Shown: positions 2,285-54,749 of the stretch, one piece after another | Position numbering within the stretch: the first letter of the stretch is position 1 | How the letters are laid out: each line of letters opens with the position of its first letter | Source of the DNA: Malacoraja senta | Taxonomy: Eukaryota | Assembly: GCA_038087875.1 (NCBI GenBank) | Contig: CM075993.1 | Location: 10,914,001-10,978,000 of the forward strand | Reading direction: 5' to 3' | DNA length: 64,000 nt | Translations under genes and position numbers: made by a program | The notes under the pieces: model-generated | Databases searched by the model: none | Told to the model about the DNA's origin: nothing | Seen by the model: only the letters and a program-made list of their open reading frames with translations

Positions 2285-2510
2285 CAAGGACCAGCAGATG
2301 CTGGTTTACAAAAAGTAGACACAAAGTGCTGAAGTAACTCAAAGGGCCAGGTAGCATCTCTGGAGAACATGGATAGGCAACGTTTTGTGTTGAGACCTTT
2401 CTTCAGACAATTTCTGAAGTCTGAAGATTGGACCCGACCAGACTCATTGCCCACCCACGTTCTCCAGAGATGCTGCCTGACCCGCTGGGTTACTCCAGCA
2501 CTTTGTGTCT
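2285..2510. mobile_element. Inverted pair of Penelope-derived hammerhead-motif units (degenerate)
   Basis: Minus-strand unit ending cttcagac at 2408, followed by a plus-strand unit ctgaagat...gatgctgcctgacccgctg...ccagca. Confidence 0.7.
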
Positions 2511-2659
2511 TCTTTCCTTTTAGCTAACCCAGGTTCGATCCTGACGACGGGTGCAGTCCATGCGGAGTTTGTACGTTCTCCTTGTGACCATGCAGGTTTT
2601 CTCCTGGTGCTCTGGTTTCCTCCCACACGCCAAAGATGTACAGGTTTGTAGGTTAATTA

Positions 2660-4375
2660 GACAGTTCCTCCCACACGGTTGAGTGCATTGGGCAGCAAGC
2701 TTTGTCCATTCTGTTCGGTTATGTGTGACGTCTTCCACCCTCGATAGGTTTGTGTCCCAGGCTTCCAAATCCTTCTGGAATGTTCGCCTCCATGTGAGTT
2801 TTGGTCGGCCTCTTTTCCTTCTTCCGTCAGGTTGCCAGGTCATTGCTATCTTAGATGCACGCTCTGGTGACATTTTGAATGTCAATGCAAATTTCATCCT
2901 GCGTCCCTCTATGTCCTGGCTGAGACGCATTGTTGCAGATTCCCGGTAGATCTCCTCGTTTATAATGTGGTCTCTGTAGCTAGTCTTCAGTATCCTCCTC
3001 AAGCAGCGTTGTTGGGATGCATCCAATTTATTTTTCATCTTCACATTGATTTTCCATGTCTCACTGGCATGTAGGGAGGACTACGGACTGGAAGAGCTTG
3101 ACTTTTAGCATCTTGGATATCCCGCCACTAGACCATATTGGCTGCATTTGTCTGAAGACTGATGCAGCTTTACCAATTCGGGAGTTGATGTCGACCTCTG
3201 CATCTCCATCCACTGTGAACATGCTGCCAAGATAGGTAGATCTTGTGGCGTTTTCCACAGGTTCCCCATTGATTTAAACACCTTTCCAAAGGAAGTTATT
3301 AACAATTATTGTTGGGGTGGCGCAGTGGGTAGAGCTGCTGCCTCACAGCGTCCAGAGACCCGGGTTTGATCCTGACTTTGGGTGCTGTCTGCATGTGGAG
3401 TTTGCACCTTCTCCCTGTGACCAGATGGGTTTCTTCCGGGATACTCCCACATCCTGAAGATGTGGATTTGAGGGTTGATTGGCCCATCTGTAAATAAAGA
3501 AATTGCCCCCGGTGTGTAGGGAGTGGGTGAGAAAGTGAGATAACCTGGAACTGGTGTGAACGGGTGATCGATGGTCAGCATAGGCCCGGTGGGCCAAAGG
3601 GCCTGTTTCTGTGCTGTATCTCTAGACTAAGTTATAACATTATGCTTAGGGGTCACTTAATGTGGAGAAAAAGGCAGGAGTAGTGATCTTTGTGTTTAAT
3701 TTTACGTGTATTTGTTTAGTTGTGACTTATCTGTGGTTTATTCTTGATTAACTCACTGGAGAGGAACTGTGGAAAGTAGATGACTTGTTGGCAGGGATGC
3801 CAGTGACTTGAGTTTAGTTTAATGTCACGTGTACCGAGGTACAGTGAAAAGCTTTTGTTGTGTGCTAACCAGTCAGCAGAAAGACAATACATGATTACAA
3901 TCAAGCCACTGCGGTGCTGGCTCGAAGGGCCGAATGGCCTACTCCTGCACCTATTGTCTATTGTCTATTGATTATCAGTTGGTCTATTGGCTGCTGGTCT
4001 CCAGTCTGCATGGTCTTAGACTTCTGGCAGCTGATCTTTAATGCAACCTTTGATGCATTCTCCTCCAGAACGGTTGTCATCTCTTGAAGGGTGTGTGTCG
4101 ACTCTGCTAGTAGTGCAATGTCATAGGCAAAATCTAGGTCTGTGAGACGTCTTCCTGTTCTCCATGGTATTCCAAAGCCAGGTTGTACATTGTGTTCCAC
4201 ATGACATAGTCGATTGTGACAATAAGCAGTAAAGGGGATAGAAGTCAATCTTGCCTTACCCCTGTGACAATGTCTTACCCCTCGCAAAGGTTCTTGAAGA
4301 TGTTGATGAAAGCCTCTGGGATGCCATACACTTTAAGAATTAGCCACAACGTGTCTCTATGTACACTATCAAAGG
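2660..4375 (-). mobile_element. RTE-clade LINE fragment, interrupted by a SINE and LINE tails
   Basis: ORF pieces LTDLDFAYDIALL (RT), YLGS..DINSRIGKA and KRGRPKLTWRRT in collinear order. Confidence 0.8.
3313..3632 (+). mobile_element. HE1-like V-SINE
   Basis: tRNA-like head GGTGGCGCAG..GGGTTTGATCC, V-domain, CR1-like tail gggcctgtttctgtgctgtatctct. Confidence 0.85.
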
Positions 4376-4589
4376 TTAATTGGCTTGGTAAAAATTTCAC
4401 CAAAAACGAAGTGATTAGGCTAGCGAACTCAGCGGGTCAGGCAACATCTCTGGAGAATAAGGATGGGTGACGTTTCGGGTCGGGACCTTGCTGCTGAAGA
4501 AGGGTTCCGACCCAAAATGTCACCAATCATTTTCCTCCACAGATGCTGCCTGACCCGCTTGCGTTACTCCAGTACTTTGTGTTTTTTTT

Positions 4590-4826
4590 CCTTTTTCACA
4601 CAGAGAGTTGTGAATCTGTGGAATTCTCTGCCTCAGAGGGCGGTGGAGGCCGGTTCTCTGGATATTTTCAAGAGAGAGCTAGATAGGGCTCTTAAAGATA
4701 GCGGAGTCAGGGGAGAAGGCAGGGACGGGGTACTGATTGGGGATGATCAGCCATGATCACATTGAATGGTGGTGCTGGCTCGAAGGGCCGAATGGCCTAC
4801 TCCTGCACTTATTGTCTATTGTCTAT
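4590..4826 (+). mobile_element. CR1 3' end
   Basis: FFTQRVVNLWNSLPQ, 3' UTR, (TATTGTC)n tail. Confidence 0.85.
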
Positions 4827-4932
4827 TAACCAACCCAGCTTGGTGCTTCTGGACAGCTGGACTTGTGAAACATTTATTGTGTAGCCAGCAAAAACAGGTG
4901 GTAACCAACAGTAGGTCTGACTTTCTCTATTA

Positions 4933-5240
4933 AGCCCATATCCTACTTTTCCGAGTTACTCACGAATTCTCCCGAGTTTTCCCCTTGAATCAAACTCGGA
5001 GATGCCAGCCGTAGGTACACGGGGCTATTTTTTTTACTCGTGGACATTTTTCAACATGCTGAAAAAACATCCCGACTTACCTGATGCCCCGAGTACCTAC
5101 GGCTGGCATTACGAGCCGCTACGAAATATCTACGGACTCCTAAGGCCTCCTACGGACTCGCTAGGGACATTCTCCGAGTTTGAATCAAGGGGAAAACTCG
5201 GGAGAATTCGTGAGTAACTCGGGAAAGTGGGACAGGGGTT
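4933..5240. mobile_element. PIF/Harbinger-like MITE (related family)
   Basis: About 70-bp TIRs (ccgagttactcacgaattctcccgagttttccccttg and its complement), TTA-like flanks, internal motif tttttcaacatgctgaaaaa shared with 1828-2147. Confidence 0.8.
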
Positions 5241-9803: not shown

Positions 9804-9812
9804 AGCGAAGTA

Positions 9813-10050
9813 ATAGGTGACGTTTCGGGTCGAGACCCTTCTTCAGACTGAGAGTCACGGGAAAGGGAAACAAGAGATAGAGATGGTGATATAGAGAAGT
9901 ATAGAACAAACCAATGAGAGATATGCAAAAAAGTCTGAAGAAGGGTCTTGACCCGAAACTTCACCCATTCCTTCGCTCCATAGATGCTGCCTCACCCGCT
10001 GAGTTTCTCCAGCATTTTTATCTACCTTAGATTTTTCCAGCATCTGTACT
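9813..10050. mobile_element. Inverted Penelope-derived pseudo-LTR pair with hammerhead motifs
   Basis: Intact minus-strand core at 9819-9846; plus-strand copy from 9935. Confidence 0.8.
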
Positions 10051-11659: not shown

Positions 11660-13510
11660 TGAGGCGATCAGGCCACATTTAGGGTACTGTGAGCAAATAT
11701 GGGCCCCATATCTGAGGAAGGATGTGCTGGCTCTGGAGAGGGTCCTGAGGAGGTTTACAAGAATGATTCCAGGAATGAGTGGGTTGGCACTTGGCACATG
11801 ATGAGTGCTTGACTGCACTGGGCCTGTACTCAATGGAGTTTAGAAGGTTGAGGGGGGACCTCATTGAAACTTACAGAATAATGAAAGGCATAGATAGAGT
11901 GGATGTGGAGAGGATGTTTCCATTGGTGTGTGAGTCTAGGACCAGAGGTCATAGCCTCAGAATTAAAGGGGGCTCTTTTAGAAAGGAGGTGAGTAGGAAC
12001 TTCTTTAGTCAGAGGGTAGTTAATCTGTGGAACTCATTGCCACAGAGGGCTGTGGAGGCCAAGTCAGTGGGTATTTTTAAGGCAGAGATAGACATGTTCT
12101 TGATTGGAACCGGTGTCAAGGTTTATGGGGAGAAGGCAGGTAAATGGGATTAGGAAGCAGAGATCAGCCATGGTGGAGTGGACTCAATAGACAATAGGTG
12201 AAGGAGTAGGCCATTCGGCCCTTCGAGCCAGCACCGCCATTCAATGTGATCGTGGCTGATCATCCACGATCAGTACCCCGTTCCTGCCTTCTCCCCATAT
12301 CCCCTGACTCCGCTACTTTAAGACCCCTATCTAGCTCTCGCTTGAAAGTATCCAGAGAACCGGCCTCCACCGCCCCCTGAGGCAGAGAATTCCACAGACT
12401 CACAACTGTGTGTTTCCTCATCTCCGTTCTAAATGGCTTATCCCTTATTCTTAAACTGTGGCCCCTGGTTCTGGACTCCCCCAACATCGGGAACATGTTT
12501 CCTGCCTCTAGCGTGTCCAAACCCTGAATAATCTTATATGTTCCAATAAGATATCCTCTCATCCTTCTAAATTCCAAAGTATAGAAGCCCACCCATTCTC
12601 TCAGCATATGACAGTCCCACCATCCCGGGAATTAACCTCGTGAACCTACGCTGCACTCCCTCAAATGACTCGATGGACTAATTCTACTCCTACAATTTGT
12701 GAACTTGTACTTGTGAAAGTGTAAGCCCGACTCGCCCACCGCAGGCCCCAAGCCACCGGCGTTAACAGGGCCCGGGCACAAGTGGGTGAGGTACAGGTAT
12801 AATGAAACCTTGCTTGCAGCAGTATCACAGACACATCGTCTCAGGCAACACACAAAACATAAATACCACATAAATTCTGCAAGGCAAATTAACAGATTTT
12901 GCACGTTTTGCGGCAGGGTGCGTCCAAGTGTGAAAGCTTGACAGATCACTCTGTGGAAACAAGGAACTGCAGATGCTGGTTTATACCAAAGATAGATCAT
13001 TTTGGGCCACATATCGAAGGAGGGTCTAGAAGAGGATTACAAGAATGGTCCCAGGAATTAGTAGGTTATCCAATGATGAGCGTTTGGCGGCACTGGGCCT
13101 GCACTTGCTGGAGTTTCGAAGAATGAGGGGGGAACCTAATTGAACGTACAGAATAGTGAAAGGCTTGGATAAAGTGGATATGGAGAGGATGTTTCCACTA
13201 GTGGGAGAGTCTAGGACTAGAGGTTCTAGCCTCAGAATTAAAGGTTCTTTTAGGAAGGAGACGAGGAGAAATTTATTTAGTCAGAGGGTTGTGAATCTAT
13301 GGAATTCTTTGCCACAGAAGGCTGTGAAGGTCAAGTCAGTGGATATTTTTTAAGGCAGAGACAGATAGATTCTTGTTTAGTACAGGTGTCAGGGGTTATG
13401 GGGGAAAGGCAAGAGAATGAGGTTAAGAGGGAGAGATAGATCAGTCATGATTGAATGGCGGAGTAGACTTGATGGGCCGAATGGCCTAATTCTACTCCTG
13501 TCACATGACC
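11660..13510. mobile_element. Cluster of CR1 3' fragments (11660-12190 +, 12190-12663 -, 13000-13510 +)
   Basis: Repeated EFRR.RG.LIETY / RTRGHSL / WNSLP motifs. Confidence 0.85.
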
Positions 13511-14039
13511 TTAAGTGCTGGAGTAACTCAACGGGTCAGGCAGCATCTGTGGAGGAAAAGGATTGGTGACATTTTGGGTCAGGACCCTTCTTCAGCAGGA
13601 AGGTTTAACCCGAAACGTCCCCCATGCTTTTTCTCCAAAGACGCTGCCTGACCCGCTGAGTTATCCAGCCTGATCACTTTGTTATTGTTGACATTTTTAC
13701 CAAAGCCAATTTACCTACAAACCTGTACGTCTTTGGAGTGTGGGAGGAAACAGGAGCACCCGGAGAAAACCTAGGTGGTCCCGAGGAGAACGTACAAACT
13801 CCGCACAGACAGTACCCGTAGTCAGGATCGAATCTGGGTCTCTGGCGCTGTGAGGCAGCAACTCTACCGCTGCCCCACCGTGCCACTGTACGGCCTTTCT
13901 ATAACATTGCAGCAGAGATGGTGGTGGAGGCAGATACGACAGTGGCATTTTAGAGGGTTTTGGACAGGCACATGGATAGGTAGGGAATGGAGGGATATGT
14001 AGGGAATGGATATGCAGGGAATGGTGGGATATTGTAGCC

Positions 14040-14570: not shown

Positions 14571-14699
14571 TTTATCATGTGCAGGCGGATGACATTAGTT
14601 TAATTTGGCATTATGTTCAGCATGGACACTGTGGGCCGAAGGGCCTGTTCCTGTGCTGTCCTGTTCTATCTTCACTATATACTCCAGCCTGGACTATCG

Positions 14700-16000: not shown

Positions 16001-16468
16001 TTTTCCGATCAAGGTGTGACAGTACGAGGTTCAGTGTTGTTGAGACTGCGTCCTCTGTGGATCGGTTGGCTCTGTAGGCGAACTGCAGTGGGTCTAGGTC
16101 GGCAGGTAGACTATTTTTGATATGCTGCATAACCAGTCGCTCAAAACACTTCATTACTATGGGTGTTAGAGCCACTGGTCGAAAGTCATTATGGCAGGCT
16201 GGGTTTGGTTTCTTCGGGACAGGGACGAAGAGTGCCACCATCGTCCCTGTCCCGAAGAAACCAAACCCAGCCTGCCATAATGACTTTCGACCAGTGGCTC
16301 TAACACCCATAGTAATGAAGTGTTTTGAGCGACTGGTTATGCAGCATATCAAAAATAGTCTACCTGCCGACCTAGACCCACTGCAGTTCGCCTACAGAGC
16401 CAACCGATCCACAGAGGACGCAGTCTCAACAACACTGAACCTCGTACTGTCACACCTTGATCGGAAAA
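16001..16468. repeat. 228-bp inverted duplication (fold-back) with a 12-bp spacer
   Basis: 16001-16228 is the reverse complement of 16241-16468; the same 37-aa N-terminus appears in ORFs on both strands. Confidence 0.95.
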
Positions 16469-17711
16469 ATACTTATGCCAGGATCCTCTTCATAGACTTC
16501 AGCTCTGCTTTTAATACAATCATTCCGCAGCAGTTGGTGGAGAAGTTGGAGCTATTGGGAGTTGATGCTGGCACATGTAACTGGGTCCTGAACCTTCTGT
16601 CGCAACGGCAGCAGACAGTCAGGGTGGGCAGTATGACATCAAAAACCATAGCCGTGAGCACTGGCTCGCCCCAAGGCTGTGTCCTAAGCCCCCTGCTGTT
16701 TAGTCTGCTAACACACGACTGTACTGCTAGACTCAACAACAACTTCATCAACAAGTTCGCTGATGACACAACAGTGGTGGGTCTCATCAGTGACAATGAT
16801 GAGTCGGCGTACAGGATGGAGGTGGAGCTGCTCACAGGATGGTGCAAATCCCACAACCTCATTCTCAACGTGGGAAAAACGAAGGAGATGGTGGTTGACT
16901 TCAGGAGGGCGGGAAAACAACACCATACACCTCTGCACATCGATGGAGCTGATGTGGAAAGGGTCAACAGCGTGAAGTTCCTAGGACTCCACCTGTCAGA
17001 TGACCTGACGTCCACGACCAACACCACAGCACTGGTCAAGAGAGCCCAGCAGCGACTACACCCTCTCCGAAGACTGCGTAAAGCAGGTCTCCCCACTACA
17101 CACCTACGAACTTTTTATAGGGGGACAATCGAGAGCACATTAACCTACGGCATCACTTCCTGGTTCGGGAGCTGCAAGGCGTACGAACGGCACCAACTAG
17201 ACAGGATTGTGAAGACCGCCAGCAGGATTATTGGTGCTCCACTCCCTTTCCTGCTGGACATATACAGGAAGAGATGTATCAGCAGAGCCATCTCCATCAT
17301 CAAAGACCCCTACCACCCATCCCATCACATATTCTCCATCCTGCCATCTGGGAAGAGGTACCGGAGCATTAGGTGCAAAACCAGCAGGATGCTCCTCAGC
17401 TTCTTCCCGCAGGTTATAAGACTGATAAACGGACTTTGTCCCCTGCCAAAGTATCGTGCACCAACCACCAACCTGGACACACTGCAGCAGAGCCACTGTC
17501 GTGCCGCTGCCGATCGGAACGCCTGTTGATGTTTACTAGAGTAGAGTGTTAATTTGTTCATGATATATGTATTTTTACTTCTATTTATTTTTTACTGCAC
17601 ACACTGAAATGGACACTGGTTGAGGAACGTTTTTTTGTTTCCTCTGGGTATGCGAATACTCAGGAAATGACAATAAAGATATACAATACAATACAATACA
17701 ATACAATACAA
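16229..17711 (+). mobile_element. 5'-truncated Rex1/Babar LINE with uninterrupted RT-coding frame (within ORF 16117-17529)
   Basis: [41 protein letters not shown]; (CAATA)n tail. Confidence 0.92.
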
Positions 17712-22292: not shown

Positions 22293-22980
22293 CTTCAGAC
22301 TAGAAACGTCACCTATTCCTTCTCTCCAGAGATGCTGCCTGACCCACTGAGATACTCCAGCGCTTTTGGTCTATCTTCGGTTTGAACCAGCACCTGCAGT
22401 TCCTTCCTACACATCCTGTGTACATGATATAGGGAATAATGTTTAGTGCAAGATACAATCCACTAAAGCCCCGATTAAAGATAGTCCGAGGGTCTCCAGT
22501 GAGGGAGTGTAAAAGGTACACTGCAGAGTCTGTGTTCATATTGAAGGTTTTCCAAATGACAGCAACCCTCCTTGCAGCTCGTTGATCCTTATTGCCAGTT
22601 TAATCTGTGAATCCTTGACATGCATGATTAATTAGGCACACTGGTTGCTACACAATGTAAACATGGCAGCTCCCACTGCAACACAGCCGGGATGCTGTGC
22701 CTGCTTGGTTCTGAAGCAGAAACACACACGCAGCAGTATAAAGCAAAGTTCACCCCTCTCGCTTTTTCAGTTCTTAGAAAATGAGTCGCAGTGCTACCGC
22801 CGCCCAAATCCACGCGTCCCTGGGAGTGTGGGCGGAAACCGGAGCACCCGGGGGAAACCCACCTGGTCACGGGGAGAACGTGCAAACTCGCACGGACAGC
22901 AGCCGAGGTCAGGATCGAACCCGGGTCTCTGGCGCTGTGAGGGTGGGTGGGAGGGTTTAGTCCGTGTGATCATTCCCGAG

Positions 22981-23146
22981 TGCAGCTGACCAGTGCAGTG
23001 CAGCTGACCAGGTGAATGCAGCTGACCAGTGCAGTGCAGCTGACCAGTGCAATGTAGCTGACTGGTGCAGTGCAGCTGACCAGTGCAGTGCAGCTGACCA
23101 GTGAAATGCAGCTGACCAGTGCAGTGCAGCTGACCAGTGCAGTGCA
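22981..23146. repeat. 18-bp minisatellite, about 9 copies
   Basis: Unit tgcagctgaccagtgcag. Confidence 0.95.
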
Positions 23147-23596
23147 CACAACTACCCCCCTCTCTGCTCAGTCGGAAAGGGAACTGGCTTTCACTAGCAC
23201 CTCTCTTTGTCAACTGCCTCCGAGCACCAGAGACCCGGGTTCGATCCTGCCCTCGGGGTGCTGTCCGTGTGGAGTTTGCACGTTCTCCCTGTGACCACAT
23301 GGGTTTTCCCCCGGGTGATCTGGTTTCCCCCTCACATCCCAAGGACATGTGTATTTGAAGGTTAATTAGCCTCTGTATATTGCCTCGAGTGTGTCGGAAG
23401 TGGATGAGAAAACGGGATAGAATATAGCTAGTGTGAATGGGGGAAGAAAGGACACAACCTGAAACATGACCCATTCCTTCCAGAGATGCTGCCTCTCCCG
23501 CTGAGTTACTCCAGCTTTTTGTGTCTGTCTGATTGTTGGTCAGCATGGACTCTGTGGGCCGAAGGGCCTGTATCTCAAATTAAATAAAACTAAACA

Positions 23597-23893
23597 CCAC
23601 CGGAAATTGGAGGAGCAGCACCTCATATTCCGCTTGGGCAGTCTGCACCCTAGCGGCATAAACATGGACTTCTCCAATTTCCGGTAGCCCCTTGCTGTCT
23701 CCTCCCCTTCTCAGCTCTCCCTCAGCCCTCGGGCTCCTCCTCTTCCTATCTCCTTTCTCCTTTCTTCTTCCTGCCCCCCCCTCCCCCCCACCCTACATAA
23801 GTCTGAAGAAGGGTTTTGGCCTAAAACGTTGCCTATTTCCTTCGCTCCATAGATGCTGCTGCACCCGCTGAGTTTCTCCAGCACTTTTGTCTA
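23597..23893 (+). mobile_element. Penelope-like element 3' end (family B)
   Basis: HRKLEEQHLIFRLGSLHPSGINMDFSNFR* (end of the GIY-YIG domain), pyrimidine-rich UTR, then a degenerate hammerhead motif at 23803. Confidence 0.85.
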
Positions 23894-24288
23894 ATCCCTT
23901 GGACGTTCACTTCAGTGGGTTAATTCTCTCAACCCCCACCATTTGAAGATAATCGTCAACAACACACAACTTGCCTTTAACCAATCTGTACTAATTTCAG
24001 TTTATTAAGGTGTGGTTTTTAAATGTCAATTAATTTTGTTCAACATGTTGAGTTTCCTGGATTGTTATGGCCTCAAAATGTTTCCGTTTCGGCTGACAGC
24101 GTAGTTATTGCCAGATTTGACCCCCTCAACTTTTTATATAAAATCGAGTCTACATTTTGCAATTTACTGCTCTGGCATCATTCCCAGATTTAAAGAGGGT
24201 TCAGCGTTGGGGTGAGCCTTTGCAGCAAGCAGCCTTGCTCAGAGGCTAAGGCCGGCTCTTGGGCTCCACAGTGGGAACTTTAGTTTAG

Positions 24289-25141: not shown

Positions 25142-25827
25142 CTTTAGTTTAGATACAGCGAGGAAACAGTCCCTTCGCCCACCGAGTCTGCGCCGACCAG
25201 CGATCCCCGCACACCAACACTATCCTACACACACTAGGATCAGTTTACACATACACCAGGCCAATTTACCGACATACCTGTACGTCTTTGAAGAGTGGGA
25301 GGAAACAGAAGATCTCAGAGAAACCCACGGGTAGAACATACACACTCCGTACAGACAGCATCCGTAGTTGGGATCGAACCTGGGGCTCCAGCGCTGCAAG
25401 CGCTGTGAGGCAGCAACTCTACCAATGCGCCACCGTACTGCCTTTTAAGCCACATCTTTATCTGGTTTTATGCCAGCCACGTAGTTCTGCCCGCACCTTT
25501 GCTGGTAAAGTTCAGTTTCTGTTTTCACTGCACCGAGGTACAGTGAAAAGCTTTTGATGCGTGCTATCCAGTCAGCAGAAAGACAATTATGACAATCGAG
25601 CCATTTACAGCGTACAGATACGTAGGGAATAATGTTTAGTGCAAGGTAAAGCCAGCAAGGAGTTCAAGTTCAAGAGAGTTTATTGTCATGTGTCCCTGAT
25701 AGGACAATGAAATTCTTGCTTTGCTTCAGCACAACAGAACATAGTAGGCATTGACTACAAAACAGATCAGTGTGTCCATATACCATTGTATAAATATATA
25801 CACACATGAATAAATAAACTGATGAAG

Positions 25828-26495
25828 TCCAGGGTCCTCGACAGTCCCTTCAGGTTAGGCAGAGGTTCACTTGCACGTCCTCCAACCTCATCTACTGCTC
25901 AAGATGTGGATTCTTAAACATCGGCGAGACCAAACGCAGACTGGGTGAGCGTTTTTGCTAAACACCTCTGTCGCTCAGTCAGCTGGACCTACCTGATTCC
26001 CAGTTGCTGGACACTTTAATTCTCCTTCCCATTCCCACACAGACCTTTCTGTCCTCGGTCTCCTCCATTGTCAGAGTGAGGCTAAACGCAAATTGGAGGA
26101 ACAGCATCTCATATTTCACGGGCAGTTTACAGCCCAGTGGTATGAACATTGATTTCTCTCACTTCAGGTAGCCCCGGCATTCCCTTTCTCTCTCTATCCC
26201 TCCCCCACCCAAGTCACACCAGCTTCTCATCTTCCCCCAACAAACAGTTTACAATGGCCTGTTTCCTTTATCATCGTTACATTTTTGCATATCTTTCATT
26301 CATTGTTCTTTATCTCTCCACATCACCGTCTATATCTCTTGTTTCCCTTATCCCTAACCAGTCTGAAGAAGGGTCTCGACCCGAAACGTCACCCATTCCC
26401 TCTCTCCAGAGATGCTGCCTGTCCCGCTGAGTTACTCCAGCATTTTGTGTCTATCTTCGATTTAAACCAGCATCTGCAGTTCTTTCCTACACGGT
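25828..26495 (+). mobile_element. Penelope-like element 3' end (family A): degraded GIY-YIG plus pseudo-LTR
   Basis: Reads as FQVRQRFTCTSSNLIYC..IGETKRRLG..HFNSPSHSH..RKLEEQHLIF; intact hammerhead core at 26363-26390. Confidence 0.88.
26363..26390 (+). ncRNA. Minimal type-I hammerhead ribozyme motif (family A, representative copy)
   Basis: CTGAAGA-A-GGGT[CTCG]ACCC-GAAAC-GTC; located in a Penelope pseudo-LTR, the established site of these motifs. Confidence 0.7.
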
Positions 26496-34040: not shown

Positions 34041-34452
34041 ATGGAGTATGTCCACACTGTCCCAGTGCACCATTGCCGGCAGTGTACACAGCACTCTTTA
34101 TAGCCTCTCGAGTAATTAGTGCATTTACAGAATGAACACACTCAGTTTGCTATCATCTGGTTAATCGCCAGTTTAATTAATCTAATTAAATCAATTTGCG
34201 AATCTATTCAAGTGTAAATGTTGGTTGGTAAACAGAGTTCTGCCTGTCAACTCAGCCAGCAGAAACCTCCTTTTGTTACCATATGGCAGGCGTCACAATG
34301 TATGTAAGTTTCGTTTAGCGATACAGCACGGAAACAGGCCCTTCGGCCCACCGGGTCCGCGCCGACCAGCAATCCCCGCACATTAACACTATCTTACATG
34401 CACTAGGGACAATTTACATTTTTTATTCCAAGCCAATTAACCTACAAACCTG

Positions 34453-34640
34453 GAGAAACTCAGCGGGTGCAGCAGCATCTATGGAGCGACCATCAGACTG
34501 ACCATCAGTCTGAAGCAGGGTTTCGGCCCGAAACGTTGCCTATTTCCTTCGCTCCATAGATTGCTGCTGCACCCGCTGAGTTTCTCCAGCATTTTTGTGT
34601 ACCTTCGATTTTCCTGCATCTGCAGTTCCTTCTTTAACAC
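34453..34640 (+). mobile_element. Family-B hammerhead mini-element inserted in a SINE
   Basis: 14-bp TSD aacctacaaacctg (34439-34452, 34641-34654); short inverted 5' segment. Confidence 0.85.
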
Positions 34641-36303
34641 AACCTACAAACCTGTACGTCTTTGGAGTGTGGGAGGAAACCGAAGCACCCGGAGAAAACC
34701 CATGCGGTCACGGGGAGAACGTACAAACTCCGTACAGACAGCACCTGTAGTCAGGATCGAACCCTGGTCTGTGGCGCTGTAAGGCAGCAACTGTACTGCT
34801 GTGCCACCGTGCCACCCTGTGGTGTACGTTCCCAGGGTGGTATCTCGCCTTCCTGATTCTCTCCTCCCCGACTGACGATTCTTCCCCAATCTGCCTCCCT
34901 CCCTCCATCCCAGTTCTCCTCCCTCCGCTGAATCATGGTTGTTCTTCGCTCGTTCTCTCCCTTGACTCTTCCCCCTCACTCTCTCCTCACCTTGTGGCCG
35001 GCACGGCGCCAGAGACCCAGGTTCGATCCTGACTACGGGTGCTGTCTGTACGGAGTTTGCACGTTCTCCCCGTGACCTGCGTGGGTTTTCTCCGGATGCT
35101 CCGGTTTCCTCTCACACTCCAAAGACGAGCAGGTTTTCTGGTTAATTGGCTTCAGTAAAATTGTAAATTGTTGCTAGTGTGTGTAGGATAGTGTTAATGT
35201 GCGGGGATCGCAGGTCAGCAGGGACTAGGTGGGCCGAAGGGCCTGTTTCTGCGCTGCATCTCTAAACTAAACTAAACGAATCCACAGCTCCACTGCCTGT
35301 TCTACCACATTGGAGGCACTCACAACAAACTGTTCACTCCCTTCGAGGAACAAGCTGGCTCCAATGAATTCTCAGGATGTGTTTCTATGGTCTTGGTGCA
35401 GGTGCAGAGTGAGACACCAACACCTATCAAAGCGTGATGGATTATTGTGTAGGAAGGAATGGCAGATGCTGGTTTACACTGAAGATAGACACAAAATGCT
35501 GGAGTAACTCAGTGGGACAGGCAGTATCATGGGAGAAAATGAACTGGTGACATTTCGGGTCGAGACCCTTCCTCAGACCCCACTTCATTCTGCTCCATCC
35601 AGACTGCAGTGTAAATCGACCAATATTCAGAATAAAATTTTATGACAATGATTTGACAGTAACAGCCAGTGCGAATACCCAGGCAAGTCAACACAAGTAG
35701 ACAGAAGCAGGGCTGCAAGAAAAAAAAATTTGAGAGGATTGAGCTGCTTGGACAAGTTACAAACATTCATCTTTAATTATTCTAGTTTAGTTTAGTCTAG
35801 AGATGCAGGGCGGAAACGGGTCCTTGATCAGGGGCCAATTAACCGACAAACCCGCACGCCTTTGGGACGCAGGAGGAAACCGGAGCACCCGGAGGTCACA
35901 GGGAGCACGTGCAAACTCCACACAGGGAGCACCCGAGGTCAGGATCGAATTCTGGTCTCTGGCGATGTGAGGCAGCAGCTCTACCCGCTGCAGCGTTGTG
36001 CCACCCACCCTGGTCTATTACTCTTCCATACTAGCCAATGGCCACGATATTTACAGTTAGAACCATTTTGGGTTGGATAGCATTGGGGTGGGGGGGGGAT
36101 GGGGGTCACAAGCTGGGGGTCAACAGTTAAGAAAGTTATTTGTCATATGTACTGAAACAGAACTGTGAAGTTCTTACTTGTAGCACCACCACAGGTCTAT
36201 AGACACACTACACATAATACACATAATAATATATATTTAAGAAATAATGAACCCCAATATTGGTGCAATAACAAAATAAAAAAATGACAAAATAAAAGCC
36301 TGA

Positions 36304-36730: not shown

Positions 36731-37869
36731 TGAAGTTCCTAATGCAACCAAGACAGTCTCTAGTTTGGTGTTTAATTGGTGTGCATAGTGTTTAATAGCT
36801 TGATATCAGTGGGGAAGTAGCTGTTCCTGAACCTACAGTTTTCAGGCTCCTGTACCTTCTTCCTGATGGCAGGGGTGAAATGAGTGTGTGGCCAGGGTGG
36901 TGTGGGTCTCAGATGATGCCGGCTGCCTTTTTGAGGCAGCGACTCCTGTAGATCCCTTCGATGGTGGGGAGGTCAGTACCCATGATGGACTGGGCAGTGT
37001 TCACCATGTGTTGCAGTCTTCTTCATTCCTGGGTGTTTGAGTTGTTGACCCGGTCCGTGATGCAACCAGTCACTAATCTCCTCAATCTTTTAAGGAAGTA
37101 GAGGCATTGATTAGTGGGGTCATTGGCTGGAGGCCCTCGGACTATCCTTGACCGGACTTTGCTGGCTTTACCTTGCACTAAACGTTATTCCCTTATTAAT
37201 GTATCCATACACGGTAAATGGATTGATTGGAATCATGTATTGTCTTTCCGCTGACTGGATAGCCTTTCACTGTACCTCGGTACACGTGACAATAAACTGA
37301 ACTGAGGGGTGGGGGGTCACTGGCTTGGGAGGGGTGGGGTCTGTCTGGGTGGGGGAACATTGTCAGACTTGACCCGAAATGTCACCTATCCATGTCCTCC
37401 AGAGATGCTGCCTGACCCGCTGAGTTACCCCAGCACTTTGTGTCCTGTGCGTTAACCAGCATCTGCAGTTCCTTGGTTTTCCCTAACTCTAGGCTTCTGC
37501 TCTGCACATTTGCTGGGACGTAGCGGTTGACGGTAAGTCTGAAGAAGGGTCCCGACCCGAAACATCACCCATTCCTTCTCTCCAGAGATGCTGCCTGTCC
37601 CGCTGAGTTACTCCAGCACTTTGTGTCTACCTTCGGTTTAAACCAGCATCTGCAGTTCCTTCCGATGCCTGACGGTAATTCTTGCTCTGCACACTGCGTG
37701 ACGCTCATACGACACTGCTGCAACCCCAAGCAAAACACAAAGTGCTGGAGTATTAGTAACAGCGGGTCAGGCAGCATCTGTGGAGAACATGGATAGGCGA
37801 CCTTTCGGGTCGGGACCCTTCTTCAGACTGATTGTTGTAGGTGGGCTGTTTTGGATCAAGAATCCATGT

Positions 37870-39065: not shown

Positions 39066-39297
<232 letters not shown>

Positions 39298-39606
39298 TCA
39301 ACAGAATAAAATAAGATGAAGTGCTGAAGTAACTCAGAGGGTCAGGTAGCACCCTGTTGAACATAGATGAGTGATATTTCATCTGTATACTGAAGAATCC
39401 TGACCTGAAATATAACCAATGCATGTTCTCCTGAGATGCTGCCGGACCTGCCAGCATATTGTGTCTTTTCTTGTAAACGAGCGTCTGCGGTGCTTATCCA
39501 AGACCGCTAGCAATTGCAGACAATTGTGGATGCTGCCCAATCCACGTGCCACACGTGAGGCTGCAGAGGAAGATGAGAGCCCATGGTATCAAAGGGCAGA
39601 TACTAA

Positions 39607-43905: not shown

Positions 43906-44503
43906 GTTGGTCAATGTGCGCAAGTTGGTCAAAGTGGGCAAGTTGGTCAATGTGGGCAAGTTGGTCAAAGTGGGCAAGTTGGTCAATGTGGGCAAGTTGG
44001 TCAATGTGGGCAAGTTGGTCAATGTGGGCAAGTTGGTCAATGTGGGCAAGTTGGTCAATGTGGGCAAGTTGGTCAATGTGGGCAAGTTGGTCAATGTAGG
44101 CAAGTTGGTCAATGTGGGCAAATTGGTCAATGTGGGCAAGTTGGTCAATGTGGGTAAGTTGGTCAATGTGGGCAAGTTGGTCAATGTGGGCAAGTTGGTC
44201 AAAGTGGGCAAGTTGGTCAATGTGGGCAAGTTGGTCAATGTGGGCAAGTTGGTCAATGTGGGCAAGTTGGTCAATGTGGGCAAGTTGGTCAATGTGGCAA
44301 GTTGGTCAATGTGGGCAAGTTGGTCAATGTGGGCAAGTTGGTCAATGTGGGCAAGTTGGTCAATGTGGGCAAGTTGGTCAATGTGGGCAAGTTGGTCAAT
44401 GTGGGCAAGTTGGTCAATGTGGGCAAGTTGGTCAAAGTGGGCAAGTTGGTCAATGTGGGCAAGTTGGTCAAAGTGGGCAAGTTGGTCAATGTGGGCAAGT
44501 TGG
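43906..44503 (+). repeat. 18-bp minisatellite, about 33 copies, derived from a CR1 3' UTR
   Basis: Unit gttggtcaatgtgggcaa, running into gttgggccgaa..cctgtttcc; single-copy counterpart near 6926-6965. Confidence 0.95.
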
Positions 44504-46450
44504 GCCGAAATGCCTGTTTCCACGCTGTCAGCACGGTGGCACAGCGGAAGAGTTGCTGCCTCACAACGCCAGAGTCCCGGGTTCAATCCTGCCGATGGGT
44601 GCTGTCTGTATGGAGTTTGTACGTTCTCCCTGTGACTGCGTGGGTTTTCTCCGGGTGCTCCGGTTTCTTCCCATACTCCAAAGACGAACAAGTGTGTAGA
44701 TTAAATTGCCTTCGGTAAAAATGGTAAATTGGCCCTAGTCTGTAGGATAGTGCGGGGATCGCTGGTCGGCGCGTACTCGGTGGGCCGAAGGGCCTGTTTC
44801 CACACTGTATCTCTAAACTAAACTAAAGATCCATGAGGTATCTGATGCACAAGACCTGCATGGGACTCTGATCGGAGTGGATGCTGTTGTTACACATCTG
44901 TATCGAGGCATAGAGTGTGGGTACAGTGTGGAGCATCTACCAGCATGGTGGAACCAGGGCACTCTTGGGTTGCTGAGATATACCTGATGTATCTTCCACC
45001 ACCAATGGCCACAGGGTGAGTTGTTACAAGCAGCAGCCCTGTAGAATTGGTCCCTGCAATGTGAAGAGACAGCTCAATAATGCAAGCACTGAACTTTGGT
45101 ATCAAGTCTCTGATGAACTTTGATTCAAATAAACTCACCTGTGTCAACCTACGCTCTGCCAGGCTTTGTCCTGCCCCTCCTCATTCCAGCTTTCATAACC
45201 CCCTCCCCCCTCCCCCCCCATCTATAATCAGTCTGAAAAAGGGTCTTGACCTGAAATGCCACCTAGCCAAGTTCTCCAGAGATGCTGCCTGTCCCGCTGA
45301 GTTACTCCAGCTTTTTGTGTCTATCTTCTGTTTAAACCAGCATCTGCAGTTCCTTCCTACACATATCCAAACATTAACCCTGTATCCCTTTCTGCAGACT
45401 TACTGTGTGTTTCTGATATTTGTCATGTGGAGTCGGTACACTCATCCCAGGTGCATTTTTTCAGGTGCAGAATACCTGATTGCACCTGGCACTAATGAAT
45501 GAAACAACACTTAAAGAGAGAAAGAGACATGAGCATAATTAATGTGGCATGGTGGTGCACCGGTAGAGTTGCTGCCCTACAGCGCCAGAGACCTGGGTTT
45601 GTTCCTGACCAAGGGTGCTGTCTGTTCAGAGTTTGCATGTTCTCCCCGTGACGTGGGTGGGTTTTCTCCGGGATCTCCGGTTTCCTCCCACACTCAAAGA
45701 CATACAGGTTTGTAGATTCATTGGCGTGGTATATGTGTAAATTGTGCCTAGTGTGTGTAGGATTGTGTTAATGTGCGGGGATCGCTGGTCGGTGCGGACT
45801 CGTTGGGCCGAGGGGCCTGTTTCTGCACTGTATCTCTAAACTAAACTAAAAGTATAGATAGACACAAAATGCTGGAGTAACTCAGCGGGACAGGCAGCAT
45901 CTCTGGGGAGAAGGAATGGATGACATTTTGGGTCGAGACCCTTCCTCAGGCGTAAAAGCATAATCAAGAAATCTCACAAGTGTTTCTGTGGTTGAAAATT
46001 CAGCTTGTTGACAGATTACAACCCTCTTTTATACAGTCACAAAATGGAAACAGGCCATTTGTCCCACCACATCCATGCAGACCAGTGGGGGCATCCATTC
46101 AAGTTAATACCATCTTCCAGTCATTGGTCTGCAATAATCATACAGCATGGAAACAGGCCCTTCGGCCCAACTTACCCATTCCGGCAAAGATGACCCCATC
46201 TAGCCCCACCTGGCTGTGTTTGGCCCACATCTTGATTAATACAGGTGTCAGAGGTTATGGGGAGAAGTATGGGGAGAAGGCAGGACAATGGGGTTAGGAG
46301 GGAGAGATAGATCAGCCATGATTGAATGGTGGAGTAGACATGATGGGCCAAATGGCCTAATTCTACTTCTATCACTTATGACCCCTCTAAACCTTTCCTA
46401 TTGATTAAAAATGTCTTTTAAATGTCATTATAAAATATATGATCTTCCAT

Positions 46451-46523
46451 TGGCGAAACCCAGGATTGAACTAGGGACTGTTAGATCTTCAGTCTAACGT
46501 TCTCCCATCTGAGCTATTTTGGC
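46451..46523 (-). pseudogene. tRNA-Phe(GAA)-like gene, probably a pseudogene
   Basis: 73 nt GCCAAAATAGCTCAGATGGGAGAACGTTAGACTGAAGATCTAACAGTCCCTAGTTCAATCCTGGGTTTCGCCA; about 9 differences from the vertebrate tRNA-Phe sequence as recalled. Confidence 0.85.
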
Positions 46524-48426
46524 AGACAGTCTTCTATCCCTGGATGATGGATTCAAGTACTTGTGGAGACACTTCTCAAACACCTGCTTCCACCACTCTC
46601 TACAATGCATGTCAGGTAGTCCCACTCTCTGGGTGAAGATCATTCCCCTTGAATCCCCTCGCTTTTCAAGAGAGAGTTAGATTTAGCTCTTAGGACTAAA
46701 GGAATCAAGCGATATGGGGAGAGAGCAGGAATGGGGAACTGGTTTTAGATGATCATATTGAATGGCGGTGCTGGCTTGAAGGGCCGAATGGTCTACTCCT
46801 GCACCTATTTTCTATGTTTTCATATTTCTATGTTTCTATGAAATCTCTTACTCAAAATTGTCCTCAAGTTTCCTTCATCGCTGATATGGAGTAAAAAAAA
46901 TCTTCAGTGTACCCTCACTCGTAATTTTATGTACAGTACCTCAATGAAGTTTAGTTTAGTTTAGAGATACCGTCCGTGCTAACCAATAATCACCTACTTT
47001 ATACACTAGCTCTATCCTACGCACTAATTTGCATAAACCAATTAACCTACAAACCTGCACGTCTTTGGAGTGTGGGACGAAACCGAAGCACCCGGAGAAA
47101 ACCCATGTGCCCACAGAGAGAACGCACACACACTGTACAGACAGCACCCGTAGTCAGGATCGAACCGGGTCTTTTGGGCTGTGAGGCAGCAACTCTACCA
47201 CTGCGCCGCCGTGCAACAAAGTCTGAACCTCCATCGCTTCAAGGAAAATAAACCCAGCCTCTCCGGTTTCTGCTCATAACTAAAATGTTCCTTTCCTATA
47301 GAGAATGAATGAATGATACTTTATTGTCATACGTGACAAGTCACAGCGATATTCTTTTCTTGCATTCCAAAGGTATGCAAAGAGTCGCCACATAAAGGAC
47401 GCTGATAAAGTTACAAAATATCCCGCGCCAGGTCCTCCTTTGTTGTTTAGTGTGGTGTCCAGAACTGCAGAACCAGGGGCCACAGTTTAAGAATAAGGGG
47501 TAAGCCATTTAGAACGGAGACGAGGAAACACTTTTTCTCACAGAGAGTGGTGAGTCTGTGGAATTCTCTGCCTCAGAGGGCGGTGGAGGCAGGTTCTCTG
47601 GATGCTTTCAAGACAGAGCTAGATAGGGCTCTTAAAAATAGCGGAGTCAGGGGATATGGGGAGAAGGCAGGAACGGGGTACTGATTGCGGATGATCAGCC
47701 ATGATCACATTGAATGGCGGTGCTGGCTCGAAGGGCTGAATGGCCTACTCCTGCACCTATTGTCTATTGTCTATTGTCTATTGTCTATTGCATGCAGTAC
47801 TTCCGTTGAGGCCTATCAAGACTTAATAAAAGTAGAGCATAACCTCCCTGTTATTGTACACAGAGTTCGAGACTGATGACGGCCAGAATATCACATGCCT
47901 GCTTAACCATGTTGTCTATCTCCATGGCCATTTTGAAAGTTCTTTGGACTTGAACACCAAGGTACGTCTGTTTCCACGTACTCCCAGGAATGCGACTAGT
48001 CCTGGTGTAGGTAGTCTCATTTGTATTCAGAAAAATTCATCACCTCACCTCATATTCATCGGGATTAAACTCCACCTGCCATTTCTCGGCCCACTGCACC
48101 AACACGTCAACATATTACCCTGGAGCTTAAGACCACGGCTCATGATGAGTGTTTGACGGCACTGGGCCTGCACTCCCTGGAGGTTAGAAGAGTGAAGGGG
48201 GACTTGCTTGAAACTTACCGAATGGTGAAAGGCTTGGATAGAGTGAATGTGGAGAGGATGTTTCCACTAGGGGGAGAGTCTCGGACTTGAGCTAATAGCC
48301 TCAGAATTAAAGGACATTCTTTGAAGAAGGAGAAGAGGAGGAATTTCTTTAGTCAGAAAGTGTTGAATCTGTGGAATTCTTTGCCACAGAAGGCTGTAGT
48401 GACCAAGTCAACAGATGGAGATAGAA

Positions 48427-48596
48427 GGTACACAAAAATGCTGGAGAAACTCAGCGGGTGCAGCAGGTCTGAAGAAGGGTTTCGGCCCGAAACGTTACCT
48501 ATTTCCTTCGCTCCATAGATGCTGCTGCACCCGCTGAGTTTCTCCAGCATTTTTGTGTACCTTCGATTTTCCAGCATCTGCAGTTCCTTCTTTAAC
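48427..48596 (+). mobile_element. Family-B hammerhead mini-element inserted in a CR1
   Basis: 16-bp TSD acagatggagatagaa (48411-48426, 48597-48612); intact core at 48469-48496. Confidence 0.88.
48469..48496 (+). ncRNA. Minimal hammerhead ribozyme motif (family B, representative copy)
   Basis: aggt-CTGAAGA-A-GGGT[TTCG]GCCC-GAAAC-GTT-acct; the aggt/acct flanks can form helix I. Confidence 0.7.
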
Positions 48597-48789
48597 ACAG
48601 ATGGAGATAGAATCTTGATTAGTATGGGTGTCAGGGTTTATGGAGAGAAGGCAGGAGAATGAGGTTAAGAGGAAGAGATCGATCAGCCATGATTGAATGG
48701 CAGAATGGCCTAATTCTGCTCCAATCACTTATGACCTTATGACCACTCCCTCACTGTCAACTCACATCACCAGCCATCGGTGAATGCTA

Positions 48790-51354: not shown

Positions 51355-52810
51355 TACAAAAAGCTGGAGTAACTCAGCGGGACAGGCAGCATGTCTGGAG
51401 AGAAGGAATGGGTGATGTTTTGGGTCGAGACCCTTCTTCGGACTGGTTAGGGATAAGGGAAACGAGAGATATAGACGGTGATGTGGAGAGATAAAGAACA
51501 ATGAATGAAAGATATGCAAAAAGGTAATGATGATAAAGGAAACAGGCCATTGTTAGCTGTTTGTTGGGTGAAAATGAGAAGCTGGTGCAACTTGGGTGGG
51601 GGAGTGATAGAGAGAGAAGGAATGCCGGGGCTACCTGAAGTGAGAGAAATCAATATCCGAGCGAAATATGAGATGCTGTTCCTCCAATTTGTGTTTAGCC
51701 TCACTCTGACAATGGAGAAGACTGAGGACAGAAAGGTCAGTGTAGGTACACAAAAATGCTGGAGAAACTCAGCGGGTGCAGCAGCATCTATGGAGCGAAG
51801 GAAATAGGCAACGTTTCGGGCCGAAACCCTTCTTCAGACAAGGTCAGTGTAGGAATGGGAAGAGGAACTAAAGTGTCCAGAAACCGGGAGATCAGGTTGG
51901 GTCATGCGGGCTGAGCAAAGGTGTTCAGCAAAAAGATCGCCCAGTCCACATTGTGAACAACAGATACAGTAGATGAGGTTGGAGGAGATGCAAGTGAACC
52001 TGAAAGTACCTGTGGAGGGGGTGGTTTAGTTGGGAAGGTCCCGTTGGAGGTGGCAGAAATTTCGGAGGATTTTGCGTTTTACGCGACGGCTGATGGGGTG
52101 GAAGGTAAGGACTAGGGGGACTCTGTCTCCATTGCAACTAGAGGGAGGAGGAGCAAGAGCAAGGCTGTGGGGTACCGAGGAGACACGAGTGAGGGCCTCA
52201 TCTAAGATGGGAGAGGTGAACCCCCGTTCCATAAAGAATGAGGACATCTTGGATGTTCTGGTATGGAACACCTCATCGTGGGCGCAGATGCGGCGTAGAC
52301 GGAGGAATTGGGAGTAGGGGATAGTCTTTGCAGGAACACTACCCTACACACACACTGGCATTATGTCCTCGGTCCCCTCCATTGTCAGAGTGAGGCAAAA
52401 CACAAATTGGAGGAACAGCATCTCATTTTTCGCGTGGGCAGCTTACATCCCAGTGGTATGAATATTGATTTCTCTCACTAGAGATAGCCCCGGCATTCCC
52501 TCTCTCTCTCTATCCCTCCCCCACCCAAGTCACACCAGCTTCTCATTTTCATCCTACAAACAGCTTACAATGGCCTGTTTCCTTTATCATCGTTAATTTT
52601 GTTGCATATCTTTCATTCATTGTTCTTTATCTCTCCACATCACCGTCTATATCTCTCGTTTCCCTTATCCCTAACCAGTCTGAAGAAGGGTTCCAACCCG
52701 AAACGTCACCCATTCCTTCTCTCCAGAGATGCTGCCTGTCCCGTTGAATTACTTCAGCTTTTTGTGTCTATCTTCAGTTTAAATCAGCATCTGCAGTTCT
52801 TACTTACACG
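51355..52810 (-). mobile_element. 5'-truncated Penelope-like element (family A) with inverted pseudo-LTR
   Basis: Minus-strand FFMERGF..RVPLVLTFHP..ILRNF..LQRD plus GIY-YIG remnants; 51355-51730 is mirrored by 52365-52770. Confidence 0.85.
51747..51839 (-). mobile_element. 93-bp family-B hammerhead mini-element
   Basis: 14-bp TSD aaggtcagtgtagg (51733-51746, 51840-51853); begins at gtCTGAAGA. Confidence 0.88.
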
Positions 52811-54749
52811 CTTAATTCTACCTCATTCGGTTCTTCTAGTTTAGTTTAGTTTACTTTCGAGATTTAGAGATACAGCGCAGAAACAGGCCATTGGGCCCAC
52901 CGAGTCATCACCGACCAGCGATCCCCGCACACTGACACAACCCTACACACACACTAGGGACAATTTACAATCTTTACCGAAGCCAATTAACCTACAAATC
53001 TGTACGTCTTTTGAGTATGGGCGGAAACCGGAGCACACGGGGAAAAGCCACGCAGTCACGGGGAGAACGTACAAACTCCGTACAGACAGCACCGTAGTCA
53101 GGATCAATCCTGGGTCTCTGACACTGTATGGCAGCAACCCTACTGCTGCGCCACCTTCTACTGCTGTACTGCAATATTTTTTGCACTTCATATTGCACTA
53201 TGGTCTTGCACCATTCTGCTGTTTCGCATTCCTCAATGCATTTATTATTGCACTGTGTATACTGTTTGTTCTCTGAGATTCATTCAAACAAGGAATTTTA
53301 TTGCACCTTGGTGAATATGACAATAAACTAATTTGAATGCATGAGTTGCCCTCATCTACTCCGAGGCTACATCCTTATTGAACTGCAAACACAATATCCT
53401 TTTCATATGTTGAATCTGCTCACTCTTATAATTTTCCAAGTGTTAGATATGACATTCAGTATTATAGACCAGCATTTTCTCAGGTATTGATCTGTCTAAA
53501 AGGTCGGCAGTGCATGGTTTTATTTTTAGACTTTGGCCGTCAGTGATACTGCGTGGAAACAGGCCCTTCGGCCCACCGCATACCATTGGAGTGTGGGAGG
53601 AAACTGGAGCACCCGGAGAAAACGTCATGGTCACTGGGAGAACGTAAAACTCCGTAGAGACAGCAGCCGTCGCTAGGATTGAACCTGGGCCTCCAACGCT
53701 GTGAGGCAGCAACTGTACCGCTGTGCTTCAATCTCCAAGAGCCATTCCATAATCTTTCGAATTTCATAAGACAGGAACGTAAGCATTTTGTCTGTGGCTA
53801 CCTCTTCCAAATCTCTGGTGAGTGGCTCATCATCTCTTTGGGATCAATTTCCAGCCTCATTCAGTAGTAGAAACAAGGAACTGCAGATGTGCAGAAAAAA
53901 TAACTAGATGCTGGTTTAAACCGAAGGTAGACACAAAATGCTGGAGTAACTCAGCGGGACAGGCAGCGTCTCTGGAGAGAGGGAATGGATGACGTTTCGG
54001 GTCGAGACCCTTCTTCAGACTCAGAACTGCAGATGTTGGTTTACACAAAAGCCCCAAATACAGATTAACTCAGTAAGTTAGGCAGCACAGATAGGTGACA
54101 ATTTGGGTCGGGCCACTTCTTCAGATAGGAATCATCTCCAGTCCGAAGAAGGGTACGGTCCTGAAACGGTACCTATCCATGTCCTTCAGAGATGCTGCCT
54201 GGCCCGCTGAGTTACTCCAGCACTTTGTGTCCTTTCAGGCTCATTAACCTCCATAAGCATTTCTTTACTAATGCTTATTTATTGTCCCTTCTCATTTCCA
54301 CTGGAGGAAGCTGGGAGTTCATGGGGAGCCCAGGTGGAACGGCAAGATGAAGATTAGCAGGGTGAGGTGTACGTTACCAATGTCAGTCCCTCAGTGTAGG
54401 AGACAATTCCCAGAGTTAACAAAGGGCGTGTACTTCAGAAAGGTGAACATGGTGCCAGAGAATTTCAGCACACACAGTTCAAGAGTCAAGAGTGTTTTCT
54501 TGTCAGATGCCCCAAACAGAACAATGACAACAGAATATGTAAACATAGTAATCTGTCGCGCACGCGCACACGCACGCACACGCACACGCACACGCACATA
54601 TTTATTTAATAGCCCGATGGCTGCAGGGAAGAAACAGCTCCTGATCCTGGACATTAGAACATAGGTGCAGGAGTAGGCCATTCGGCCCTTCGAGCCTGCA
54701 CCGCCATTCAATATGATCATGGCTGATCATCCAACTCAGTATCCTGTAC

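Follow-up and report, generated by a model that had tools for sequence, protein, structure and literature searches.

A 64,000-bp stretch of the Malacoraja senta genome (GenBank assembly GCA_038087875.1, contig CM075993.1, positions 10,914,001 to 10,978,000; hereafter the window) consists to 76% of repeat sequence and carries many copies of a short hammerhead ribozyme motif. Using a hidden Markov model (HMM) built from 19 of these copies, we found with nhmmer 36 remnants on both strands between positions 2312 and 54234, which clustering places in about eight subfamilies. They are the hammerhead-bearing ends of Penelope-like elements (PLEs), each a pseudo-long terminal repeat (pseudo-LTR) with an optional tail. 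A preliminary description of this DNA had named six intact motifs and counted more than 20 copies in all. All six match CTGAAGAAGGGT-N4-RCCC-GAAAC-GTY exactly where they had been placed, and the larger count holds if decayed copies are included (28 sites with at most 6 mismatches to the 27-nt motif, 36 by the HMM) but not as a count of intact motifs, with 6 of the 36 remnants passing the exact descriptor and 10 of the 36 a relaxed one. Shuffles of the window gave no motif matches and the reversed sequence no HMM matches, which excludes a chance origin. Rfam at gathering thresholds found no hammerhead in the window.

The six exact motifs occur in different settings. The one at 26363-26390 (+), of A type (GUC) and with a predicted cut 3' of 26390, belongs to a 5'-truncated PLE 3' end (25827-26495, +), recognized by tblastn with an intact frame, in which a broken GIY-YIG frame (25827-26165) is followed by a pyrimidine-rich 3' untranslated region (UTR), the hammerhead, and a long end with tail. 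Another A-type motif, at 52680-52707 (+), lies in the inverted arm of a broken PLE: this arm (52365-52810, +) is a 5'-truncated copy comprising the GIY-YIG end, UTR, hammerhead, and tail, and it stands head-to-head with a PLE 3' part (51355-52328, −) that retains the C-terminal region of the reverse transcriptase (RT), GIY-YIG, UTR, and a hammerhead with a changed core (CCGAAGA at 51441). Inserted in this 3' part is a B-type mini-copy of ~93 bp (51747-51839, −), which contains the exact motif at 51810-51837 (−), starts 2 nt before the core, and is flanked by a 14-bp target-site duplication. The exact motif at 48469-48496 is part of a B-type copy with a tail (48424-48600, +) that is preceded by a short inverted arm and has a 16-bp duplication. 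The motif at 9819-9846 (−) has a microsatellite in place of its downstream part and is head-to-head with a copy at 9935-9962 (+), whose core is intact and whose palindrome is broken (ACTT), and the sixth, at 53991-54018 (−), is again of A type. Broken palindromes also mark the motifs at 37539-37566 (+; ACAT, a mini-copy with tail and a 9-bp duplication), 37799-37826 (−; AGGT, of an older subfamily), and 35549-35576 (−; ATGT, with CTGAGGA in the core). A further B-type PLE 3' end (23589-23894, +) holds the GIY-YIG C terminus, UTR, and a decayed hammerhead at 23803. Decayed ends form head-to-head pairs at 2312-2515 (both strands), 4426-4589, 13503-13669, 34437-34607, 39318-39470, and 54043-54234.

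Broken GIY-YIG and RT frames sit upstream of several window copies, and 25 of the 150 matches listed in a genome search with these frames fall in open frames of at least 1,150 amino acids (aa). We fetched 20 loci and compared 11, in all of which hammerheads flank a frame of 1,224-1,250 codons on both sides; the length of the 5' repeats varies. An intact copy thus reads hammerhead, 1,224-aa RT/GIY-YIG frame, hammerhead, with the two motifs 3.9 kb apart, and tandem arrays occur at two loci (L091 and L092). Of 126 frame ends, 89 unique ones are followed by a motif within 800 nt. The median difference among 13 intact frames is 0.7%, so one subfamily is young, and its intact members provide a vertebrate Neptune-type element for biochemistry. 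Counted from its first methionine, the protein has 1,212 aa and bears a proline-rich insert at the N terminus. Pfam matches to RVT_1 (E 1.3e-6) and GIY-YIG (E 0.0025) are weak, both below the Pfam cut-off; 2,806 homologues were found, the best named ones from sharks and rays, while a PDB sequence search with a 792-aa frame gave 0 matches. In translation, the linker between RT and endonuclease reads CNRKRCNTC (C-X4-C-X2-C), in agreement with the CX2-5CxxC linker of the Neptune clade, which is found in Nematis as well (PMC8557442).

These features are those of endonuclease-bearing (EN+) PLEs, including Neptune, for which a single frame of RT and C-terminal GIY-YIG, a cysteine linker, partial tandems, an inverted 5' copy, a 30-40-bp tail on one end, and short target-site duplications have been described (Craig et al. 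2021, PMC8557442; Arkhipova et al. 2013, PMC3846280). The Malacoraja senta elements have the same single frame, as far as the weak Pfam scores allow, together with pseudo-LTRs arranged as partial tandems, the inverted 5' copy, and an optional tail of ~35 bp; unlike the published cases, their frame is 1,212 aa long, compared with ~840 aa in rotifer examples and ~900 aa in homologues. We conclude with good confidence that the repeats are minimal type-I hammerhead sequences in the pseudo-LTRs of EN+ Penelope-like retrotransposons, likely Neptune, and that nearly all copies are 5'-truncated, decaying, and likely copied from uncut RNA. The placement of such hammerheads in PLE pseudo-LTRs, which the preliminary description had taken from earlier work, is borne out here by motifs flanking intact RT/GIY-YIG frames.

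Three observations concern relatives of this frame. A ray protein whose annotation is that of a kinase-domain isoform (P0108) includes about 450 aa of it, likely an annotation artefact or exonization. Distant metagenome relatives came from 30 loci, mostly too short to reach the end repeats. On one metagenome contig (L271), a clear hammerhead-like motif at 1806 (−), its helix II 7 bp long, accompanies a distant PLE fragment to which it is not linked.

The motif fits the published consensus of minimal hammerheads, CUGANGAH-G..C-GAAAN-NUH with an ACGU palindrome (Cervera and De la Pena 2014, PMC4209133, Fig. S3), and has the core CUGANGA ... GAAA N N U H. All larger subfamily consensi read CUGAAGA-A-GGGU..RCCC, with an unpaired base between A9 and G10.1 and a G10.1-C11.1 pair. 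As the preliminary description had proposed, helix III is reduced to a palindrome: a 15.1-16.1 segment takes its place, ACGU in 7 of 8 consensi and in 54 of 77 descriptor hits, and in the eighth and oldest consensus it shows CpG decay. Helix I, on which that description did not remark, has only 2 bp (GU with AC or GC) in 54 of the 77 hits and at least 3 bp in 4 of them, which falls within the 2-5 bp of published minimal type-I members. The hammerheads reported from metazoan PLEs share the CUGANGA core, the extra base before helix II, G10.1-C11.1, GAAA-CG-UH, and the absence of helix III; they too are present in both end repeats and survive mostly as solo truncated copies (PMC4209133). By eye, the nearest rows of Fig. 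S3 in that paper are Culex quinquefasciatus, with a 2-bp helix I, and Crassostrea gigas; the species listed there include no cartilaginous fish. Other hand-found members with a 2-bp helix I appear in the same figure, whereas the paper's RNAMotif descriptor sets stem I at 3-7 bp (Fig. S7). This descriptor, a search filter and not a definition of the family, misses 73 of our 77 sampled motifs, and a 2-bp helix I below its 3-bp minimum would explain why the family has been missed.

Clustering of 435 copies gave 8 clusters of at least 10 copies that include 425 of the 435, the number of clusters being our choice, and the 28 window copies assigned to them spread across all 8; the two families seen in the preliminary description do not describe this diversity. 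Its view that helix II is kept while the loop varies was right; the subfamilies themselves, however, have the loops CTCG, TTCG, and CCCG, and CpG decay is the best explanation of CTTG and TCCA. Compared with their own consensus, copies keep an identity of ~0.91-0.97 in core and flank alike and of ~0.8 at CpG sites; these copies had been chosen for reaching the core, a bias towards intact cores. Decay is fastest at two CpG sites, C11.1-G12 and the palindrome. Inserted copies decay neutrally and are under no selection.

Genome-wide, a search for the exact pattern returned 54,342 motifs in 1.94 Gb (28 per Mb) and none for the reversed pattern. A further sample comprised 80 segments of 10 kb each, set at fixed positions along 19 of the largest contigs, without length weighting and leaving out unplaced contigs; it contained 451 remnants, of which 33 (~7%) have the exact motif and 77 (17%) pass the relaxed descriptor. 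By this remnant density, the window is ordinary for the Malacoraja senta genome. Density was lowest on the largest contig (55 remnants in 200 kb) and highest on small contigs (150 in 200 kb). Extrapolation gives an estimated 0.74 to 1.1 million remnants, a number that further distinguishes these elements from the published EN+ PLEs, and an estimated ~89,000 to 127,000 motifs passing the relaxed descriptor. The motif family is thus a very large one of mostly dead Penelope end fragments bearing a known ribozyme motif, and the expectation that it usually goes unannotated was correct, given 54,342 exact matches without Rfam annotation and a published descriptor that mostly misses them.

Since 2014 it has been known that minimal hammerheads occur in Penelope end repeats and are abundant as solo truncated copies, and a dimer model dates from then too (PMC4209133); the present family is a further case of this class. 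What it adds is scale: one vertebrate genome with perhaps a million remnants, overlooked by Rfam and by the published descriptor. That paper gives ~4,000 motifs in coelacanth and 9,000 in Xenopus, obtained by search methods that differ from ours. Non-LTR retrozymes are likewise non-coding hammerhead repeats derived from PLE ends and can be very numerous: the axolotl genome has 126,247 motifs (Cervera and De la Pena 2020, PMC7229834; Li et al. 2026 bioRxiv); the head-to-tail array of hammerhead units typical of them is absent from the 38 tandem-repeat rows of the window. A literature search, with Repbase and Dfam outside its range, found no account of this family in cartilaginous fishes, although the supplements of a 2026 preprint that includes one chondrichthyan genome may bear on it; within the same limits, we found no account of the 5' stop described below.

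The ends of the copies provide a natural record of how PLEs transpose, a cycle that is poorly understood. Among 595 copies, 3' ends cluster at two sites, ~+93 and ~+128 from the core (271 short, 199 long, 125 other). Head-to-head pairs combine a short and a long end in 51 of 66 classifiable cases, where 33 were expected (p 5e-6; 43 further pairs are unclassified), which fits the tail carried by one of two inverted ends in rotifer PLEs. Target-site duplications of 9-21 bp flank 44 of 236 copies, compared with 15 of 600 swapped controls, and in 23 of the 44 the duplication lies within 7 nt of the core, so real copy ends are located there. When 312 copies were anchored by their 3' part, 107 began at −5..+1 (107 of 175 at risk). 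The rate per base was 0.087 in this bin and 0.003-0.05 in the remaining ones. Around the predicted cut site (+25..+31), by contrast, only 7 of the 312 begin (7 of 257 at risk), and we rejected cut RNA as the main template.

The stop before the core is confined to short copies. None of 21 long copies that cross the 5' hammerhead stop there, compared with 15 of 35 family-B copies (p 3e-4); the latter were taken consecutively along one contig, and the former are those left after duplicates flagged by the script had been dropped, a few rows at locus edges being dropped with them. This contrast bears on the idea that mini-copies are ordinary abortive products of an RT that, whatever its template, pauses at the C-rich tract or the hairpin of the hammerhead. 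The strong 5' truncation of PLE insertions in general (PMC8557442) and the scatter of the stops across several bases would agree with it, but a plain sequence pause fails to explain why long copies pass the same sequence on their second crossing when first-pass family-B copies stop; a pause specific to a newly started enzyme would still fit, and overall we regard this explanation as quite improbable. A stop in short but not long copies instead suggests that the short ones had a template RNA of their own, itself short and starting at the hammerhead.

The 5' ends could alternatively reflect RNA processing and not transcription start if the pyrimidine tract and CAG before the core act as a splice acceptor, as in Drosophila virilis Penelope. 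In every subfamily the 3' UTR, almost wholly C/T, terminates in CAG|T, several subfamilies have a GT overlapping the stop codon, and the D. virilis intron ends at helix I (PMC2377424), making this a fair rival. On the other side, the youngest subfamily has GC in place of GT at the stop, splicing at AG|T with that donor would, as read from the sequence, not extend helix I, and mini-copies have no common first exon between duplication and core. A spliced first exon ahead of the mini-copies was accordingly discarded, no sequence being shared there, and we consider the splicing account unlikely. At one end-repeat junction, contigs from 4 sequencing runs end loosely near −3 to −5 and at each of the two 3' sites, and among the 15 of 32 joints listed none is a GT..AG joint ending at CAG; since such contigs cannot show RNA starts or an absence of splicing, they were weighed neither for nor against any reading.

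The initiator consensus is YYANWYY, which the invariant TCAGT at the core boundary fits. An initiator-like TCACT has been published for a rotifer end repeat, and D. virilis Penelope has an internal promoter (PMC2377424). By analogy with the anole element (PMC11167929), the PLE protein would nick DNA and prime reverse transcription inside the RNA at the two 3' sites. On a model to which we give roughly even weight, the very common 95- and 130-bp mini-copies would come from a template RNA, most likely transcribed from TCAGT, that has its 5' end 0-5 nt before the core, and long copies from tandem or circular templates that run through the hammerhead. More tentatively, and with the balance tipping against it, the 95-/130-bp unit of hammerhead plus tail may be a self-propagating satellite of Neptune elements, similar to a short interspersed element (SINE): RNA from TCAGT would be copied by the element protein from two internal start sites, much like integrated strong-stop cDNA, to give ~1 million copies. 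It would then be denser than any minimal-hammerhead family that we found reported for a vertebrate, and an RNA start that leaves room for a helix I of only 2 bp would make it invisible to current descriptors. The tRNA-like head of tRNA-derived SINEs is missing, the sole tRNA that Rfam and ARAGORN find in the window lying outside all copies.

Whether the motif still cuts is a separate matter. By ViennaRNA, monomers of both types are not predicted to fold as hammerheads (helix II pair probability at most 0.06); GGGU pairs preferentially with an RCCY just past the cut site, present in 7 of 8 larger subfamily consensi. Neighbours within 150 bp form 100 head-to-head pairs on opposite strands against 49 on the same strand. 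Being mostly antisense, close neighbours cannot dimerize within one RNA, and an intra-RNA dimer is mainly possible for full-length elements. The alternative fold, the 2-bp helix I, and the few 5' ends at the cut site would all agree with a motif kept for a non-catalytic role (as a start-site element or a protein-binding or dimerization signal) after cutting was lost, as would the unaffected insertion in vitro of anole ribozyme mutants (PMC11167929) and the absence of cleavage in 8 of 9 frog dimers (bioRxiv 10.64898/2026.07.22.740005). Yet 12 of 13 columns of the catalytic core are invariant across the 8 consensi, compared with 4 of 13 in the adjacent 3' linker after the cut site (p 0.004), and the upstream 3' UTRs vary in length and sequence. 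The anole hammerhead, moreover, cut once protein was added (PMC11167929), and the D. virilis motif, likewise with a 2-bp helix I, cuts weakly with an extended helix III. We hold a purely non-catalytic role to be rather unlikely. The ribozyme likely cuts rarely, only as a protein-assisted dimer joined through ACGU, and its cut products would seldom serve as templates.

At the opposite extreme, 54,342 exact motifs at 28 per Mb might be tens of thousands of efficient self-cleaving ribozymes that shape host transcripts. The inserted copies are under no selection, the hammerhead fold is not predicted for monomers, the nearest partners are mainly antisense, and published minimal motifs were inactive as monomers and weak as dimers, and we judge this highly improbable. 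The data give no support for taking the density of motifs noted in the preliminary description as a density of working ribozymes.

Several observations weigh against our interpretation. The Neptune label comes from the linker motif and the vertebrate host and not from a tree with named Neptune elements. The core is no better kept than the block at +41..+82 (33 of 42 columns invariant, p 0.42), so the comparison of core and flank proposed in the preliminary description succeeded against the linker and failed against this block. Helix changes among the 8 consensi preserve pairing but are one-sided (U-A to U-G), with no compensatory pair change seen, and covariation therefore does not show selection for catalysis. 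As for the short template RNA, the 21 long copies belong mostly to one young subfamily and include tandem neighbours at the same locus, and the stops are scattered over 0 to −5 and not fixed to a single base, some apparent stops at −4 perhaps being those of subfamilies without a 3' UTR reference. A predicted cap-derived G was not seen: the non-templated base before AGT in non-inverted copies is A in 10, G in 8, and T in 1, and an apparent overall enrichment of G vanished once inverted copies were removed.

A close parallel for the copy ends is Poseidon of Anolis carolinensis (Frangieh et al. 2024, PMC11167929), which has two internal 3' end points bounding the tail, a hammerhead at the junction of the pseudo-LTR and the open reading frame (ORF), and an uncut RNA template such as we infer for the Malacoraja senta copies. 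The two differ in that the Poseidon ORF begins within helix II, whereas the first methionine in Malacoraja senta lies ~163 nt past the core, beyond the tail. With two fixed 3' ends, 5' ends that seldom coincide with the cut site, and a stop specific to short copies, these patterns make the role of PLE hammerheads more directly testable, and a template RNA starting at the hammerhead is the one lead worth following.

Several details of the copy junctions were also observed. CCAGCAT precedes both 3' end points and is complementary to a conserved ATGCTG at ~+49 (L091 5766-5900; in all subfamilies, +47..+80 and the tail), so that each start site could be marked by one of two alternative hairpins. 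An identical mini-copy with the same 13-bp duplication and a 40-nt leader occurs on three contigs (L134, L187, and L226), pointing to transduction or to dispersal within another repeat. In some head-to-head junctions, the overlap coincides exactly with a near-palindrome, CAG(T/A)CTG, before the core (L042 8681-8683, L049 7917-7919, window 4494-4496), suggesting fold-back or microhomology joining. At L198, L216, and L218, mini-copy 5' junctions contain small stretches of the core that were copied again (GAAGAAGGG), as though synthesis had restarted at the end.

Apart from these repeats, no host-gene Pfam family was found among 92 of the 97 window frames, in DNA that is mostly unmasked. A tRNA-Phe(GAA) gene or pseudogene lies at 46450-46524 (−; Rfam 41.9 bits, mismatched acceptor pairs, also called by ARAGORN). 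A near-complete, broken CR1-like long interspersed element (LINE) spans 54833-58496 (−), with a GDSL/SGNH esterase-like frame (57765-58496), AP endonuclease (57136-57825), and RT (55260-56850). A 483-aa RT frame with an ALKBH8_N-like domain (16078-17529, +) belongs to what we take to be a Rex1/Babar-type LINE. Two 18-bp minisatellites, at 43906-44503 (33 copies) and 22979-23146 (9 copies), have long open frames on both strands, and each adjoins a common short repeat.

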